Source: a virus (Duplodnaviria; Caudoviricetes). Taken from it: DNA of 41,951 nt. Position 1 is the first letter of the stretch. Each line of letters opens with the position of its first letter. Made by a program: the position numbers and the translations under genes. Shown here in pieces: positions 1-41,951 of the stretch. The notes beneath the pieces are model-generated. The model was not told the DNA's origin. It was given only the letters and a program-made list of their open reading frames with translations, and made no database searches. Location: positions 1 to 41,951 of IMG/VR virus record IMGVR_UViG_3300048998_000066; one strand, 5' to 3'.

Positions 1-149
1 CGGCAGTACCGGTCGCCCCGATGATATGTACTACCTTTAAAGAAAGTGTGGTGGGGTTCATACCCCAACAGGGGTTTAGTCCTGTCTAGCCTTCCGCCGA
101 AGCAAACGACCTCCGCAAAGATATGAACCCCATAAACAACTATATAGAA
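1..149. repeat. Terminal direct repeat (copy of 41791-41951, lacking 12 bp); circular assembly overlap
   Basis: 1-149 matches 41791-41951 except that GTCTGCCATATG is missing after position 28; the exact match 24-149 = 41826-41951 is 126 bp. Confidence 0.95.
49..131 (-). ncRNA. Candidate structured RNA with a tRNA-like acceptor end (83 nt)
   Basis: Minus strand GGGGTTCATA...TATGAACCCC-ACCA; internal cUUCGg hairpin and ACAGG/CCTGT hairpin; intergenic. Confidence 0.5.
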
Positions 150-152
150 GTA

Positions 153-189
153 TGGCGGGGGAGGTATCTGAGAGCTAGCGCCCTCCCCC
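153..189 (-). ncRNA. Candidate minihelix RNA or hairpin ending in GCCA
   Basis: Minus strand GGGGGAGG-N17-CCTCCCCC-GCCA. Confidence 0.3.
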
Positions 190-224
190 GTTACGCCGTA
201 CGCCTACCTAACCAGGAAGGTCCC

Positions 225-614
225 TCAGATAATGGGCGCCGTAGTCGCCGTCGCCGCCGGGGCCGCGCCGCCGATACCGAAGCGCGCCAGGACACCTTGG
301 AACGCCGTGTACAGGGTTCCGTACTGATGCGGCTGCGCTTCCGGCAGGTTCGCCACGCCGTTTTCGCGCATGGCGACACCGAGCGCATCTTTGACGGCTT
401 GGTTCGAAATGTGCGGCATGATCAGATTGGTAAGCTGATCAGCGGTCACGCTGGATTGAGCGAGGGCCGGTGGGGTGGTCGGTACAAGTGCCGGAGCGGT
501 CACGTCTGGCGCGAGTTGCGAAACCAAAGTGCCGGTAGCATCCGTGGAGCCTTGCAGCAGGGCGTTCGCGGCGGCACGCAGGGCGGCGGCGAGTTGTTGC
601 GCGGTGATCGTCAT
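225..614 (-). CDS. Hypothetical replication-module protein (Ala/Pro linker plus small helical C-terminal domain)
   Basis: 129 aa ORF with AAGGAG RBS; position and size resemble the small proteins found beside DUF2800/DUF2815/PolA modules. Confidence 0.75.
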   Translation of the reverse strand: MTITAQQLAAALRAAANALLQGSTDATGTLVSQLAPDVTAPALVPTTPPALAQSSVTADQLTNLIMPHISNQAVKDALGVAMRENGVANLPEAQPHQYGTLYTAFQGVLARFGIGGAAPAATATTAPII

Positions 615-2837
615 TTACATATCTCCTTTAAAGTCTCTAGGTAGGGAGTACCCAGCCCGGCCCTGCACGATCAAGTTTTCAAACTTCATTGTGGTCAGTA
701 CCTGCGATATGCGTGAGCGGGATACATTGGGAAGTACCGACCCAAATTCGATTTGGGTCATGTACGGGTGCCGTTCAAGAAGCTTTAAGATAGCCGCCCG
801 AACATCTTGTTTCGCAGCCGGGAGCCATCCACCCCGTTCCGCGTCAAACGCCATGTCAAGTTCGAAGTCGTGCGGCACGTCGCGACCGGACAGCAGCAGC
901 TTGCGCTCCTCGCTTTCTTGCTGAATGCCGCGTTTGCCTTTGATACTCATAACGCCGTCAACGGAGCCGGTAATGCCGGCCGTGCCAGAGGCGTCCTCCA
1001 TGAAGTCGGCGCTTTCTTGCGATGCTTGACCTTTTTTCTCGTGGTGTACGATTAGCACGCAAACCTCACGCGCCGCCGCCATCCGAGTAATCGGCATCAT
1101 CTGATCCACGTCGCGCTGATACACGTCGCGATTATTCGATTGGTCGCGGAAGTGCGCGTACGTATCGATAATGATAAGGCGGGTTGAGGGATACATGTCT
1201 AGAAACCTTTCCAGAGCGTCAACGCCGGCTTGACCGCGCGGAAAAGCGTTATATGCCCGCTCCGCTTCTTCAGGGTTTGAAATGTACTCACGTCCAGTAG
1301 TCGGGCTGATATCAACTCCTCCCGTCCAGTATCGGAAACCTGATAGGTCAGGTGGATTAAGTTCCAGGGTTTGGAGAAGCTTAATACGTGCCTTGAGGCG
1401 GCGTTCGTTGTCTTCCAGACCGAGAAAAAGTACGTCCCCTTGATTGCACTTCCAATCGAGAAACTTTCGCCCGCCGCAAACGGCAAGGGCCAGTTGCAGC
1501 GCAAGGAAGGTTTTGCGCATCTTGGGTCGGGCCGCGAGAAGTATGGTGCCGGTTGGGAGTACATTGGGGATTACCCATTTTGGTTCTTTAAAGGTGCGTT
1601 TCTGTAGATCGGCCATAGAAGGGACGCGCCGGAAATCGTAAACCGGCTGCGTCGGTGTTGCACCAGGGAGTGTAGAGAGATCGCGGGTTCCGTCAAGCCC
1701 CACGCTCGATAAAATATCGAACTCCGAGAGTGGGACCTTTAAAGTATCGGCTAGGAGCCTAGCAGCTTTCGCCTTATCGCCGCCGGTAGTGAACTCTGCC
1801 ACAAGCGCGACAGGAGTACGTCGCCCCTCTGTCGCGTCACCCTGATCAGAAATGCCGAAGTACTTGATCCCGAGCGGTGGCGGGTGAATGGTAAGGTCTT
1901 CCTCGTAGTCAAGACCGAGATCGGCGCTCGCCACGCGAAAACCTTCTTTATACTCCCGCGCTGACGGGAAATAAACAGGTACCCATTCCTTAACACGTTC
2001 CAGCGCGTGACGATTGAGGCCACGGTATAGTTTCTCGTCATCAGGATACTCGCTCTTGCTTTTTGTGCCGCTACGTACCGTACTCAAAGCGCCTTGTGGG
2101 TGATACTTTAAATTAGTTATGTTGAACGCGACAATCTCAGCCAAAGTAAGTTTACGTCGAATGAACGCATCGGCGAGCATATGCGCCTTCCGATGGGGTC
2201 GAGTTGGTATGTTGTCGCCCTTTCTAGCCCAAGTACCGGGCACGCGGAAGATGCGGGCGGCGTTGAAACACGTTGTATCGACTTCGCAACCCAATGCCTT
2301 GAAGCGTCCATTAAGTGTTTTGAGGAATGTCGCGATAGCATCCCGTGCTTCCTCTGTGTTGGGCTCGTCCATCTCGTATAGCAGATGACAGCCGTTGCCG
2401 GATACGTTCTGGTAGGGCAGTGGCCAGCCGTACTCAAACTCAAGCATGTTCTTGACGATACAGCCAACTTTAAAGGCGTTCTCTAATTCTTCCTGTGTTG
2501 AACTAATCCCGCTCGGACGTATGGGGTCAATATCGATCAACAACCAACGGCGGCGCAGTATGTGATTATCCATCGTCGTGAGCGTTGCCCACGGGGATAT
2601 GCGATTGTATGAACGCGCAGCCAGATCGGGCGCGACGGGGTTGGGAGTGAAATATATGCCCGCGTAGCTGTCTTGCAAACCAGCTATGGCCGTGGCGGCG
2701 TGCACGGGGTCATTGAAGTACCCGGCGTCAATGCGCTTTTTGTTATGATGCAAGAGCCGTACTTCGAATACTTGTCCCGGTTCTACGAACGTCGAGAACG
2801 CGTACTCTAACTCTGCATAGTCGTGCTGTGATTGCAT
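615..2837 (-). CDS. Primase-helicase (N-terminal primase-polymerase-like domain, C-terminal RepA/AAA_25 helicase)
   Basis: LIDID, SGNGCHLLY and ARIFRVPGT primase-like motifs; Walker A-like ARPKMRKT, Walker B LIIIDT, IVHHEKK, SGTAGITGSVD; start taken at MQSQHD. Confidence 0.85.
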   Translation of the reverse strand: MQSQHDYAELEYAFSTFVEPGQVFEVRLLHHNKKRIDAGYFNDPVHAATAIAGLQDSYAGIYFTPNPVAPDLAARSYNRISPWATLTTMDNHILRRRWLLIDIDPIRPSGISSTQEELENAFKVGCIVKNMLEFEYGWPLPYQNVSGNGCHLLYEMDEPNTEEARDAIATFLKTLNGRFKALGCEVDTTCFNAARIFRVPGTWARKGDNIPTRPHRKAHMLADAFIRRKLTLAEIVAFNITNLKYHPQGALSTVRSGTKSKSEYPDDEKLYRGLNRHALERVKEWVPVYFPSAREYKEGFRVASADLGLDYEEDLTIHPPPLGIKYFGISDQGDATEGRRTPVALVAEFTTGGDKAKAARLLADTLKVPLSEFDILSSVGLDGTRDLSTLPGATPTQPVYDFRRVPSMADLQKRTFKEPKWVIPNVLPTGTILLAARPKMRKTFLALQLALAVCGGRKFLDWKCNQGDVLFLGLEDNERRLKARIKLLQTLELNPPDLSGFRYWTGGVDISPTTGREYISNPEEAERAYNAFPRGQAGVDALERFLDMYPSTRLIIIDTYAHFRDQSNNRDVYQRDVDQMMPITRMAAAREVCVLIVHHEKKGQASQESADFMEDASGTAGITGSVDGVMSIKGKRGIQQESEERKLLLSGRDVPHDFELDMAFDAERGGWLPAAKQDVRAAILKLLERHPYMTQIEFGSVLPNVSRSRISQVLTTMKFENLIVQGRAGYSLPRDFKGDM

Positions 2838-2894
2838 CCCCGACCCGACTTCACCCCTAGACCAGGGGGCCACCCCGATCTCTGCCGATCCCAG

Positions 2895-3061: not shown

Positions 3062-3091
3062 CACCTAGGGTGCTTCGCTAGGGGGGTCAAG
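3062..3091 (-). promoter_or_regulatory. Sigma70-type promoter
   Basis: CTTGACC-17-TAGGTG with the CGAAGCACC spacer element. Confidence 0.5.
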
Positions 3092-4064: not shown

Positions 4065-4139
4065 TGGTGAGCACGGATGGAATTGAACCACCGACACGGG
4101 GTATGTAACACCCCTGTTCTACCGCTGAACTACGCGCCC
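4065..4139 (-). tRNA. trnV: tRNA-Val(UAC)
   Basis: Full 75-nt cloverleaf: GGGCGCG TA GTTC AGCGGTA GAAC A GGGGT GTTACAT ACCCC GTGTC GGTGG TTCAATT CCATC CGTGCTC ACCA. Confidence 0.93.
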
Positions 4140-4338: not shown

Positions 4339-4381
4339 GATACTTATGCTCTGTTGAGGTTGTGGGGCTGGTGTCTACTTT

Positions 4382-4421
4382 AAAGCAAAGGGCCGTACGG
4401 GGTGACACTCCCGTACGGCCC
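4382..4421 (-). terminator. Rho-independent terminator
   Basis: 12-bp stem GGGCCGTACGGG/CCCGTACGGCCC then TTTGCTTT on the minus strand, downstream of 4458-5111. Confidence 0.75.
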
Positions 4422-4457
4422 CTCTCCGTGTCAATCCGGCTACGTCGAAACGCAGGC

Positions 4458-5111
4458 TTACAGGATCGAGGGGAGCTCGCTGGCCTTGCCGCCCAGGGCA
4501 GTGATGCCCAGCATGGCCTTGGCCGGATTGACGTACTTGGTATCGCGCATCTTTTCCAGATCAGCGCGGTTCGCACCTTGCTCGACCTTAGCGTCGATGA
4601 GCGCGTTCAGGTACGCAACGCCGTCCGCGCCGACTTCCTTCTTGGCAGACAGGAAGGTGAACTTCGGATCGGCAGCCTTGCGGCTGGCAAAGACTTCGCG
4701 AACAACCACGTCGGTGACGGTGGCAATCAGCGGGTCCTTCGTCTTGCGCGGCTTCGGTTCCGCGCCGACCTTGCGGACGTTCCCGGCGGTCAGATCGGCA
4801 ATGGCGCGGGTGTACGCGTCTTCGTAATCCGGCGCGGCGGGGCGGTCGCCTTCCGGCTTCGGCACGGCGGTTTGCAGCGCGTCGGCCTTCGTGGCTTCGT
4901 CGTACGCCTTCCAGGCGACGACCTTCTCGTCACGCTCGTATCGCGTGTGCACGCCGTTGAGGCGGTTCGCGATGTAGTTGCGCACGGCGCTCTTGAGGAA
5001 GTCCAGGCGCGTGTCGGCCGGGATCAGGGCGCAGTCGTACAGCCGCTTGCCTTCGAGATTGGGAAACTCGAATTCGGCGACGGAAGCGACGGGGGCGGGG
5101 GCTTCAGACAT
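4458..5111 (-). CDS. Hypothetical protein (217 aa), probably highly expressed
   Basis: AAAGGA RBS, own promoter and terminator, strongly GC3-biased codons like the capsid gene. Confidence 0.85.
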   Translation of the reverse strand: MSEAPAPVASVAEFEFPNLEGKRLYDCALIPADTRLDFLKSAVRNYIANRLNGVHTRYERDEKVVAWKAYDEATKADALQTAVPKPEGDRPAAPDYEDAYTRAIADLTAGNVRKVGAEPKPRKTKDPLIATVTDVVVREVFASRKAADPKFTFLSAKKEVGADGVAYLNALIDAKVEQGANRADLEKMRDTKYVNPAKAMLGITALGGKASELPSIL

Positions 5112-11464: not shown

Positions 11465-12395
11465 GGGGCGTTGGTCCTTTTTCAGTCACTTAGCTACAGT
11501 CGTGCCGAGGGGTAAAAAACGGCGCTCGGGAGCCTTTGATTTTATTGACTTTTCGAGGGTATCTCCCCGAAAGGCCTTATATGTACACGACAACACACAC
11601 TCAAGCAACGCTACAGGCATATACAACTATATAAGGGGTTGTTTGCTATATAGATATATATGTACTTATATAGACAAGTGGTTTCAACAAAAGTAATGTA
11701 CTAAAGTAATGTACTTTACAGCGTAAAAGTCGAGTATTTGTCGGCATTTCAGTTTTATACCCACATGTTTGGCTAGAATACTGGCACACATCTAGGTATA
11801 AAAGTGTAACCTGGCACAAACTTACTCGATTTACCGCGTAGTAGTTTATTAAAGTAATTTACTTCAGTTATATAGGCGGGCAGGCAGAGTAATATACTAT
11901 AGTAATATACTTAACTAATATACTTACACGCATATTCAAGTACTAAATCACTTTAAAGCTATCCCCTAGTGTTAGTATAATACTTAAATTAAAACTTATA
12001 CTTAAGGTTACTAATACTCAGTACCTTTAAAGCGTTTTAGTTTTGTAAACTAGGCCACCGGGTCGGCGGGCAGGCGGGGTACTGTTAAATTAGGGTACCA
12101 CCGCGCTAAATTTTTGTAGTTTTCGTTTAGTATACTTAGTAATTTACTTTAGAGTAATTTTTATAGTTTTCATTTAGTACGTTTAGTAATTTACTTTAGC
12201 ATAGTTTTTATTTGACCTTAGTACATTTAGTAATTTACTTTCATATAATACTCATAGGAAATCGGGCCACGTTTAAAGTCAAAAAGGCCCTTGACGACCG
12301 CGAAAAATCAATGTCCCCATGCGCCACTGTCGCGTTTTCGCCGTAGGCGAAAGCGTGCCGCCGATAGCCTTAGGGGCTCGAAAAGGAACACGAAA
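11465..12395. other. AT-rich non-coding divergence region; candidate packaging site, genome end or origin
   Basis: No credible ORF; multiple AGTAAT[TGA]TACT boxes; separates leftward early genes from rightward late genes. Confidence 0.6.
12111..12242. repeat. Three imperfect ~45-bp tandem repeats
   Basis: Each unit ends TTAGTA-NNN-TTAGTAATTTACTTT. Confidence 0.85.
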
Positions 12396-22588: not shown

Positions 22589-22616
22589 TACGACAATATA
22601 TTGGGGCGCGTAAATT

Positions 22617-23330
22617 ATGTCACTTCTATCCGTCGCTCAAGACGTAACCGACATGATCGGATTTACGCGCCCCAGCGCTATTGTTTCCAGCACCGATGCC
22701 TTGGCCAGACAAATACTTAGTCTCGCAAAAGAAACGCTGGAAGAACTCGGTCGCATGGATTGGCCGGCACTAGAAATACCGTACACTTTTAATACGGTAG
22801 TCGATCAATCGCAATACGCGCTACCCGCAGATTTCGGACGCGAGGTAGGCGATAGTGTATACGTTTCCGGCCAGTACCAAAGCCTGCGCGGTTCGTTGAC
22901 CGCCGCCGATTGGCAACGCCAGAAAAGCGGTATGCAAGCTAATCTGGGGCGGTATAGGTTTCGTATTTTCGGCTTGCCGACCATGCTCAATATCACGCCA
23001 GTACCGTCTAAAGTCGAAACATTGGTAATGGAGTACCAAACGACGTACCGCGTGCAACAGACGGATAGTACGTACAAGAATACATTTTTCGCCGATACCG
23101 ATGTGTCGCTTATGCCTGAAGAACTTTTAAAGAAAGGCCTGAAATGGCGTCTGCGCCATGCGAAAGGGCTGGATTACTCCGAAGAATTTAATGATTACGA
23201 AATGTCACGCGCCGCCAGATTGGCACAAGCGATGAGTATGGGTTCAATGCCCGTAGCATTTCGTAGCGGATTAGACAATGCCGAGGGCATTGGAAATATG
23301 TACATGCCGGAAGGCGGGTACGGTAGTTAA
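22617..23330 (+). CDS. Head-tail adaptor (tail tubular protein A / P22 gp4-like)
   Basis: Synteny; YALPADF and GLKWRL..AKGLDYSE motifs. Confidence 0.75.
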   Translation: MSLLSVAQDVTDMIGFTRPSAIVSSTDALARQILSLAKETLEELGRMDWPALEIPYTFNTVVDQSQYALPADFGREVGDSVYVSGQYQSLRGSLTAADWQRQKSGMQANLGRYRFRIFGLPTMLNITPVPSKVETLVMEYQTTYRVQQTDSTYKNTFFADTDVSLMPEELLKKGLKWRLRHAKGLDYSEEFNDYEMSRAARLAQAMSMGSMPVAFRSGLDNAEGIGNMYMPEGGYGS

Positions 23331-39801: not shown

Positions 39802-41028
39802 TTAAAGAATGTTTGGAACGTTAGAAGACGTTGCGGGGCTAAGTACGCCAAACTCACTGCCCCGTTTGTGAGCCGGTCGTCCATCGATGGCCCGTTCAAG
39901 TGTAAGGCCAGCGGAGGTTTCTGCTATGTATCTGCCTACTACGTTATCGTAAAGTTGTTTCCAGCCGCCGCGCGGCAGGCTGTGAACACGGGCGTATTGC
40001 TTAAGTACGTCCTCAATATGCTTGGGCGTACCGAGATGCTTTAAAATACGCTCATCGCTGAACTGCAAACCACCGAGGTTCATAAACCCAAGTTCGGGAA
40101 ATAGGCGCTGCGCCCATTCCTCGCCCAGCATTTCCCATACCGCTGCTGTCAGCCTTTCGGCGTTGCGTACTTCGCGGTTACGGCGGCCTTTCACGACTTT
40201 GTATCCCTCGATCTTGCGGTCCATATTCATAATACGGCGCATGGCCTCGGATCGCAGTTCGGTACGGTACCCGGCAAGTTCGTCAGAGGCGTCCAGGGCT
40301 TTTGATAGGTCCGCGTCGGACATGGCCTTAAGCTCGCTGGCGTGCCAGCCTAGCGACAAGTCCTCTTGCGTGTAGGTGCGGAAAGCCTCGCACGCGCCTC
40401 TGTGATTGCAGTACGACGCTTTGCAATGGTGGCCCGCCTCGCAGTGATCGGGGTTTTCCATTGACCAGCGCAGGCGGGCGCGGTGCGTTTCAACGTCCGC
40501 GTGCGTGGGCTCCCAAAAGCGCAGCGGACCCTCTATGTGATCGAAGTTCGGTTGATGCGCGCCAATGCGATAGTATGGGCGCGGACCGTACTTGTCGATA
40601 GCGCCACACAAGTATGTCATCATTTGTTCGTTGTGCGGTACGTTTACGACGATATAGCCACTTTTGTGATCAACTATCTCTAGCCATTCCGGCGAGACAA
40701 GTATGATATCAGCAGTGCCAAATTCACCCGTTTCGGTTATGTCTAGTTGCTGTTCGACGTACAGCTTAGTATCCGGCCCAAGTTCTTTAAAGCGCTTGAC
40801 TACGTAATCGTATAAATCCTGTAGCGCCTCAGCGGCGTTGGGATCACACGTCGGAGGAAGCGTGCCGAACTGAAGTAAGTCCTCCATAAGCTTGTGCCAA
40901 AGATCGCCCTTAGCCGACGCCTCGGTTTCGACATTGTCGTACAGAGACGTAACCGTTGCGGAGAACGGGCATGACAACCAGCGCTTGGCGGCGCTAGGTG
41001 GCCTGTTTTTTGCGTGCGCGGTTGCCAT
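39802..41028 (-). CDS. DUF2800 / Cas4-like PD-(D/E)xK exonuclease
   Basis: HA..PPSAAKRWLSCP, FGTAD, VDHKSG, NEQMMTY, C..C..C cluster, GYKVVKGR. Confidence 0.88.
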   Translation of the reverse strand: MATAHAKNRPPSAAKRWLSCPFSATVTSLYDNVETEASAKGDLWHKLMEDLLQFGTLPPTCDPNAAEALQDLYDYVVKRFKELGPDTKLYVEQQLDITETGEFGTADIILVSPEWLEIVDHKSGYIVVNVPHNEQMMTYLCGAIDKYGPRPYYRIGAHQPNFDHIEGPLRFWEPTHADVETHRARLRWSMENPDHCEAGHHCKASYCNHRGACEAFRTYTQEDLSLGWHASELKAMSDADLSKALDASDELAGYRTELRSEAMRRIMNMDRKIEGYKVVKGRRNREVRNAERLTAAVWEMLGEEWAQRLFPELGFMNLGGLQFSDERILKHLGTPKHIEDVLKQYARVHSLPRGGWKQLYDNVVGRYIAETSAGLTLERAIDGRPAHKRGSEFGVLSPATSSNVPNIL

Positions 41029-41041
41029 GCCCTTTAGGTAC

Positions 41042-41404
41042 CTAGACGATAGGCGCGTCAGTGGGGTCGGCCTGTTCTAGGCCGGTTTGCTGCGTAATGT
41101 CGCCTTGCTGCAACGGATGCACTTCGATACCCGTTGCGGCGTTCTCCGCTGTGGGGTCGCTGGGCGCGGCTTGCAAGCGGGCTACATTGCGATTAATGCG
41201 GGCCGTCAGGATTTTCGAGTAACCATGCATGAAGTTGTATTGATCTTGCAGCAAGTCCCGGTCGCCCGCCGGAAGTTCGGTGTACTCGTTACTATCAAGG
41301 AACGTACGGATCTTCATTAAACGCGCGTCGAGTTCGTTTGCTTCGACGAGCAGACGCTCGTACCAGCCAAGCGGAGTGTTAGTGGCAGTCGTTTCGATAT
41401 CCAT
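41042..41404 (-). CDS. crAss001_48-like helical-hairpin protein
   Basis: ERLLVEANELDARLMKIRTFL...DRDLLQDQYNFMHGYSKILTARI. Confidence 0.75.
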   Translation of the reverse strand: MDIETTATNTPLGWYERLLVEANELDARLMKIRTFLDSNEYTELPAGDRDLLQDQYNFMHGYSKILTARINRNVARLQAAPSDPTAENAATGIEVHPLQQGDITQQTGLEQADPTDAPIV

Positions 41405-41424
41405 TTTTAAAGTCCTTTCAAGTA

Positions 41425-41508
41425 TTAAAGTTCGAACTCATTGTCGGCGTCTTCGAATTCGTCGTCGGCGTCTTCGAATTCGTCGCAAGTGCAATCTTCG
41501 TCTTCCAT
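41425..41508 (-). CDS. Tiny acidic peptide (27 aa) with internal repeat
   Basis: MEDEDCTCDEFEDADDEFEDADNEFEL; starts 2 nt after the upstream stop, GGAGG upstream. Confidence 0.55.
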   Translation of the reverse strand: MEDEDCTCDEFEDADDEFEDADNEFEL

Positions 41509-41509
41509 C

Positions 41510-41827
41510 TTAGCTATCCATCCTCCCACTGATTAAGGGTTTCTTACCGAGAGCGCCGGCCCCTTGGGGCAGTACGCCTTTACGCGCTTCATCGAACCGC
41601 GCCATGCGGATCGTGAGTAGGTGCAAGTACGTTTGCATCTGTTCCCGTTGCAGTACTAGCAGATGCTTGTCCAGCACGTCGAGGGTTTCGAACCCGGGAG
41701 TACCGGTGAATTGGGTAATTGCCGCGATGCGCTTGGACAGGTCGTCGCCCTCCTTGCGTATGGCGTTGATCAATTGCTGGTAGGGTATCCCGGCAGTACC
41801 GGTCGCCCCGATGATATGGTCTGCCAT
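41510..41827 (-). CDS. Second crAss001_48-like protein
   Basis: KEGDDLSKRIAAITQF...FETLDVLDKHLLVLQREQMQTYLHLLTIRM; start MADHII after AAAGGT. Confidence 0.75.
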   Translation of the reverse strand: MADHIIGATGTAGIPYQQLINAIRKEGDDLSKRIAAITQFTGTPGFETLDVLDKHLLVLQREQMQTYLHLLTIRMARFDEARKGVLPQGAGALGKKPLISGRMDS

Positions 41828-41951
41828 ATGTACTACCTTTAAAGAAAGTGTGGTGGGGTTCATACCCCAACAGGGGTTTAGTCCTGTCTAGCCTTCCGCC
41901 GAAGCAAACGACCTCCGCAAAGATATGAACCCCATAAACAACTATATAGAA
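41791..41951. repeat. Terminal direct repeat (copy of 1-149 plus 12 bp)
   Basis: Direct sequence comparison with the window start. Confidence 0.95.

Follow-up and report, generated by a model that had tools for sequence, protein, structure and literature searches.

A structured 83-nt element with tRNA-type ends in the replication operon of a soil phage, a possible cut site for host RNase P

Several hairpin RNAs that are not tRNAs have been described as substrates of RNase P, including pre-4.5S (SRP) RNA, the M3 RNA of phi80, the CI RNA of P4, and the C4 RNA of P1/P7 (PMC5499578, PMC11143913, PMC10731613). In the pre-SRP and C4 substrates, an uninterrupted helix stands where tRNAs have the T loop. 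A-2 U-1 has been described as optimal for the bacterial enzyme, and the RCC of the substrate pairs with its L15 loop (PMC10731613). The 4.5S RNA is reported to end in CCC (PMC5499578). The same kind of cut has been proposed to stabilize part of an mRNA in the case of the hisCD operon hairpin (PMC10731613). Among tRNAs, a 12-bp acceptor branch has been described in the Allo-tRNAs and other 8/4 or 9/3 tRNAs of soil bacteria and phages, which were found with a tRNA-Sec model and keep the D, anticodon, variable, and T arms (PMC5389517); the supplements of that paper hold further irregular tRNAs.

The element described here has in common with the RNase P hairpin substrates a long terminal helix that lacks a T loop, a U-1/G+1 boundary, and a 3′ RCC(A), and it is of phage origin, as are M3, CI, and C4. 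Unlike these substrates, it has no C4 or SRP sequence or model match, no conserved family, and no convincing antisense target, and it lies in the replication operon of a phage in which an integrase was not found among the 41 proteins scanned. Its transcript, too, is a predicted one. Like the hisCD hairpin as described in PMC10731613, it would lie within a polycistronic mRNA. Compared with that hairpin, its predicted cut site fits the RNase P consensus more fully. The length of its terminal helix recalls the Allo-tRNAs, but the element lacks their arms: it forms a continuous helix with no T loop, and the tRNA-Sec model RF01852 gives no match to it at E ≤ 10. A literature search with generic terms, covering main texts, returned no description of the element or of the phage group.

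The stretch of DNA analyzed, of 41,951 nt (the window), represents a complete circular phage genome of 41.8 kb, and the virus record is scored as 100% complete. Two soil runs, both from one study, contain the phage DNA; among the public runs listed for it there is no RNA run, which speaks neither for nor against a transcript. The plus strand carries the genes for terminase, portal, capsid, and tail, whereas those for replication lie on the minus strand. For the capsid, the best matches among cultured phages are 47–55% identical and come from Bradyrhizobium phage ppBjS10J-1, Myxococcus phages Mx8 and Mx9, and Stenotrophomonas phage BUCT555; no cultured match to the primase spans more than 80% of its length. 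The 292 primase homologues, some at 79–87% identity, place the phage in a large uncultured group. A single tRNA gene, tRNA-Val(TAC) at 4065–4139 (-), was found in the genome by ARAGORN and Rfam. An AT-rich non-coding region at 11580–12250, between the divergent gene blocks, carries direct repeats of 47 nt and 25 nt together with an inverted repeat, and is a candidate origin or packaging region.

The minus-strand operon runs from the primase-helicase through a gene for a protein of 129 aa, a gap with the element, and two PF21825 genes to the exonuclease, the ssDNA-binding protein, and the polymerase (Table 1). The gap, which the earlier note had put at about 200 nt, measures 199 nt between the stop codon of the 129-aa gene and the ATG that follows. 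Upstream of the primase, a structured 330-nt region contains two repeated promoter-like sites, CTTGAC-N17, at 2896–2924 and 3063–3091 (-), a pattern that was written after the sites were seen. A rhizobial promoter consensus is described in PMC2873474. Taken with the capsid match, these sites are a hint that the host is an alphaproteobacterium. In positions 1–700, neither a sigma-70 promoter nor a terminator was detected.

Other sequence features of the genome were also observed. The palindrome CTTTAAAG occurs 43 times in the genome, where base composition predicts 0.4 occurrences, and many copies lie just 5′ of start codons (for example at 35–42 and 626–633), and is also present in the spacers of relatives; GTAC as such is enriched as well, with 384 occurrences against 160 expected. 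Read by eye, an ORF of 27 codons at about 41424–41507 (-), between the two PF21825 genes, is very acidic and contains a repeated motif, and relatives have acidic small ORFs at the equivalent place. At 4430–4532, an 11-bp inverted repeat joins the end of a 217-aa gene to the downstream spacer by pairing, followed by another strong hairpin at about 4340–4420.

Table 1. Coordinates of the element, its parts, and neighboring features (window positions unless a relative is named)
Feature	Position	Strand	Remark
83-nt structured element	49..131	-	terminal helix of 12–14 bp; ACCA unpaired; interior varies between rod and Y
Second copy of the element	41851..41933	-	contig-end overlap artefact; true downstream context here
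5′ strand of terminal helix (nt 1–12)	120..131	-	G+1 at 131; pair probabilities 0.91–1.0
3′ strand of terminal helix (nt 68–79)	53..64	-	
ACCA tail (RCCA motif)	49..52	-	
18-nt AU-rich linker	132..149	-	ends A-2 U-1; predicted single-stranded leader
Inner hairpin (nt 47–64)	68..85	-	2134/5000 sampled folds
Left arm of Y fold (nt 13–39)	93..119	-	includes the UUCG drawn by the earlier note as a tetraloop
Upstream 9-bp G/C hairpin	156..190	-	no U tract; z -2.0; not called a terminator
CTTTAAAG palindrome	35..42		between element and next start codon
129-aa gene, no known family	225..614	-	upstream of element; in relatives conserved directly after primase-helicase
Primase-helicase (AAA_25)	615..2873	-	head of replication operon
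105-aa crAss001_48-like gene (PF21825)	41510..41827	-	downstream; ATG 23 nt after element CCA
Second PF21825 gene	41042..41404	-	contains 12-nt exact complement (about 41334–41345) of element nt 23–34
DUF2800-type exonuclease	39802..41028	-	then ssDNA-binding protein and DNA polymerase genes
Hairpins of three relatives	L041 4935–4976; L038 4942–4979; L043 about 4949–4980		homologous; before exonuclease

The 83-nt sequence was found on the minus strand at 49–131, where the earlier note had placed it. A second copy had been missed. The contig ends are identical over 126 nt, and the two copies arise because the circular phage contig overlaps itself; a 41,811-nt contig of sequencing run X1 reads through the element as one copy. 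The first bases of the window (1–35) lack 12 nt that are found in the end copy and in two runs, a shortfall that arose in assembly where the contig begins. Runs X1–X3 showed no variant of the element; X2 covers only its 3′ part.

Folding of the element bears out some of the structure first drawn for it and revises the rest. The 10 Watson-Crick pairs of the proposed 10-bp terminal stem are present, but the predicted helix is longer, 12–14 bp, with U11-G69 (probability 0.97) and C12-G68 (0.91) extending it and two weaker U-G pairs (0.70 and 0.56) beyond these. The encoded ACCA end is unpaired in 5000/5000 sampled structures. Of the two inner hairpins, the one capped by cUUCGg is a minor form (163/5000), and the second, nt 47–64, does form in 2134 of the 5000 samples. 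The dominant folds are a rod (2762/5000) and a Y shape with a different left arm (1920/5000), and the fold originally proposed, when given a 14-bp stem, lies 1.4 kcal/mol above the minimum. In these models, the interior of the element has no single fold.

The folding z-score is -3.72 on the minus strand vs -1.13 on the plus strand. When 22 regions, the best of 5564 scanning windows across the genome, were re-tested, seven out-folded the element, which came eighth; its folding is notable but not unique in the genome. Stems of ten Watson-Crick pairs followed by NCCA have a frequency of 0.05 per simulated genome (n = 60 genomes). The real genome has a second such stem at 22602–22674, a perfect 14-bp inverted repeat with a CCCA end on both strands. 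It extends from the spacer into the first part of a tail-protein gene and could act in translation control of that gene.

The classification of the element as neither a canonical tRNA nor tmRNA-like agrees with every search made. ARAGORN, Rfam, and RF00005 (E ≤ 10) give no match to it, and D, T, and anticodon arms are absent. There is no G3-U70 pair and no match with ARAGORN or with RF00023 at E ≤ 10 (no first-pass candidate). The Infernal/Rfam check that the earlier note had named returned nothing relevant at gathering score in the window or at E ≤ 10 in positions 1–300. A resemblance to bacterial small SRP RNA prompted a search with RF00169; neither this model nor those of C4 antisense RNA (RF01695) and the YrlA Y RNA (RF02553) matched the element at E ≤ 10. 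The paired ends of canonical tRNA type, with a discriminator and CCA, are nevertheless present. In the sequence and its predicted folds, all the features of a hairpin-type RNase P substrate can be seen: the terminal helix, G+1, U-1 (with A-2), the unpaired 3′ RCCA, and an unstructured proximal leader.

The rarity of this combination was estimated in simulated genomes. Stems of at least 12 bp with RCCA, one G-U pair being allowed, occur 20 times in 400 simulated genomes; eight of these have G+1, four also U-1, and one also A-2. With at least 10 bp, the full signature occurs five times in the 400. The features counted were chosen after the element was seen, and the scan as a whole spans some 250,000 windows. 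Part of the signature is simply stem extension, because U-1 can pair with the discriminator A. The chance figures raise the odds of an RNase P site without proving one.

In the relatives compared at the DNA level, which have at most 74% primase identity, the conservation and covariation that had been suggested as a check did not appear, and 0/16 related virus records match the element. nhmmer found no homologue at E ≤ 10 in 46 loci, a set that includes six loci matching by a primase domain alone and several from one and the same phage. In 537 kb of sequence from relatives, the best nhmmer match has an E-value of 0.29 and lies antisense within a coding frame. blastn against cultured phages and plasmids gave short chance matches only. 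Pattern scans were equally negative. A scan for the ends gave 87 viral matches, and among the matches listed none resembles the element interior; there was also one genome match, inside an epimerase-like gene. Scans for inner motifs gave 7 and 13 matches, all confined to the motif and two of them, by eye, antisense to a coding frame, and a pattern of the ends plus CTTTAAAG gave two matches unrelated to the element. As far as seen, the element is a singleton among the relatives compared (≤74% primase identity).

The corresponding position in relatives is variable. The syntenic gap is at most 52 nt in 15 of 24 distinct gaps, and it reaches z ≤ -2 in 6 of the 24, with hairpins unrelated in sequence; in this gap set, the guessed start is wrong for L005, L007, L023, and L037, and possibly L149. 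A sub-region of the L005 gap has a z of -4.26. Several gap hairpins have GGGG...CCCC stems with CTTTAAAG within a few bases and tails such as ACUC or GUAU. The gap of L004 holds a perfect 15-bp stem followed by ACCA, but its first base is A. Before the exonuclease, L041 and L038, of one distant lineage, have homologous 13-bp hairpins that start with A-2 U-1/G+1 and carry an ACCA or ACCC tail. They share nine identical pairs and differ by three double changes and one single change that keep the pairing; in L043, the homologue no longer has the AU start or the ACC tail. By appearance, the L041 and L038 hairpins resemble tRNA minihelices without a T loop. In the metagenome locus L036, a true tRNA-Leu(TAA) of 63.6 bits precedes the exonuclease and is followed by the same layout of CTTTAAAG and start; the related records themselves have an Rfam tRNA match in 0/16.

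Stems with RCCA number 14 in 537 kb of relatives, about one per genome, and G+1 with U-1 is found in 0/14. Among 83 distinct RCC-ended stems in related sequence, the full signature is present in 2/19 non-coding and 3/64 coding stems, as split by a crude ORF mask that counts the really intergenic L041 stem among the three coding ones; the enrichment in non-coding stems is weak. In these sequences, the spacers of the operon attract long stems, some of them with tRNA-type ends.

On this evidence, we tentatively propose that the element is an intercistronic stem cut by host RNase P just before G+1, a model that falls somewhat short of an even chance. With A-2 U-1/G+1, a long helix, and RCCA, its ends agree with the optimum published for bacterial RNase P, and of the functions the earlier note had offered, that of a processing signal is consistent with this consensus (PMC10731613). 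The roles of decoy and primer-like RNA found no support, as no promoter or terminator of its own was detected for the element and no conservation was seen in the relatives compared. The proposal rests on the matching ends, the rarity of the signature in the null, the folding that favors the operon strand, the same ends in L041 and L038, and the tRNA-Leu of L036. Against it stand the lack of a homologue in the sequences searched, the post hoc choice of the signature, its loss in L043, the weak enrichment, and the better-folding regions elsewhere in the genome. Since the CTTGAC-N17 sites lie upstream of the primase and no promoter was detected in 1–700, the element would be co-transcribed with the replication operon. 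A cut at G+1 would then separate the message of the primase-helicase and the 129-aa protein from that of the exonuclease, the ssDNA-binding protein, and the polymerase. The upstream message would end in its own 3′ hairpin (156–190) and the downstream message would begin with a paired structure at its 5′ end, 23 nt ahead of the following ATG. In this way, the cut may adjust how stable each part is relative to the other. A free 83-nt RNA would not be required.

Nearly as likely as the RNase P cut is an ordinary, lineage-specific spacer hairpin, whether mRNA-stabilizing, pausing, a target of other RNases, or neutral, to which the ACCA is incidental. Unrelated long hairpins without U tracts follow the same gene in relatives (the 6/24 gaps with z ≤ -2), stems with RCCA occur about once per related genome, and several gap hairpins of relatives have tails such as ACUC or GUAU. 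Against this reading, the combined RNase P signature is rare in the null, and the gap already has a simple hairpin at 156–190. The main idea of the earlier note, a tRNA mimic or decoy in the form of a discrete small RNA of 83 nt that is processed as tRNAs are and ends in CCA, is unlikely. The exact tRNA-type ends, the placing of tRNA genes in such operons by phages of the family, and the existence of phage non-tRNA substrates of RNase P (PMC11143913, PMC5499578) speak for it. The missing D, T, and anticodon arms and tRNA-model score, the interior without a single fold, the lack of an own promoter or terminator, and the failure of every search to find a homologue speak against it; by our own reasoning, an RNA without an anticodon arm also offers no obvious target to anticodon nucleases. 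The boldest version, equally doubtful, would have a small podophage make a discrete, RNase P-matured, CCA-ended 83-nt RNA without tRNA arms that switches between rod and Y. Through its acceptor end, this RNA would serve as a decoy for host proteins of tRNA handling or defence, or it would regulate the next genes by antisense pairing, and the family would exchange true tRNAs, minihelices, and RNAs of this type at the same places in the operon.

An antisense RNA like C4 or CI, released by RNase P and pairing with the downstream PF21825 message, seems improbable. Nucleotides 23–34 of the element are exactly complementary to a site on the same strand, about 500 nt farther downstream, and the best duplex reaches -31.3 kcal/mol, but pairing as good is found in 2/81 other 1-kb tiles and 5/150 shuffles, opening costs are 10.0 and 7.1 kcal/mol, the site lies within a coding region and not at a ribosome-binding site, and Rfam gives no C4 match. 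We give still less weight to a decayed tRNA gene. The GGGG start and CCCCACCA end are as in the L036 tRNA-Leu of the same operon, but the interior aligns worse than most shuffles both to that tRNA (285/300 score as well) and to the tRNA-Val of the window (276/300), and decay would not extend an acceptor helix to 12–14 bp. Hardly more credible is a DNA-level inverted repeat, as an origin or protein site, or a leader ORF of 15 codons whose translation opens the stem. The element does lie in a replication operon, and A-2 U-1 G+1 is an ATG that opens 15 codons; an ATG likewise stands at the start of the hairpins of L041 and L038, with 15 or 14 codons. The G-U pairs and the strand asymmetry, however, fit RNA, the DNA fold reaches only -14.0 kcal/mol, no Shine-Dalgarno is visible, and the three peptides are unalike.

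A single unconserved element predicted from sequence changes no view yet. If it is cut, the element would join the phage hairpins that serve as RNase P substrates, a kind already described in PMC11143913 and PMC5499578, and a known but thinly documented class would be extended. With an RNase P cut, a small phage would borrow the host enzyme of tRNA maturation to punctuate its replication message. The family, if this is true, would show interchangeable solutions in one operon: a true tRNA, a 13-bp minihelix, and an 83-nt stem.
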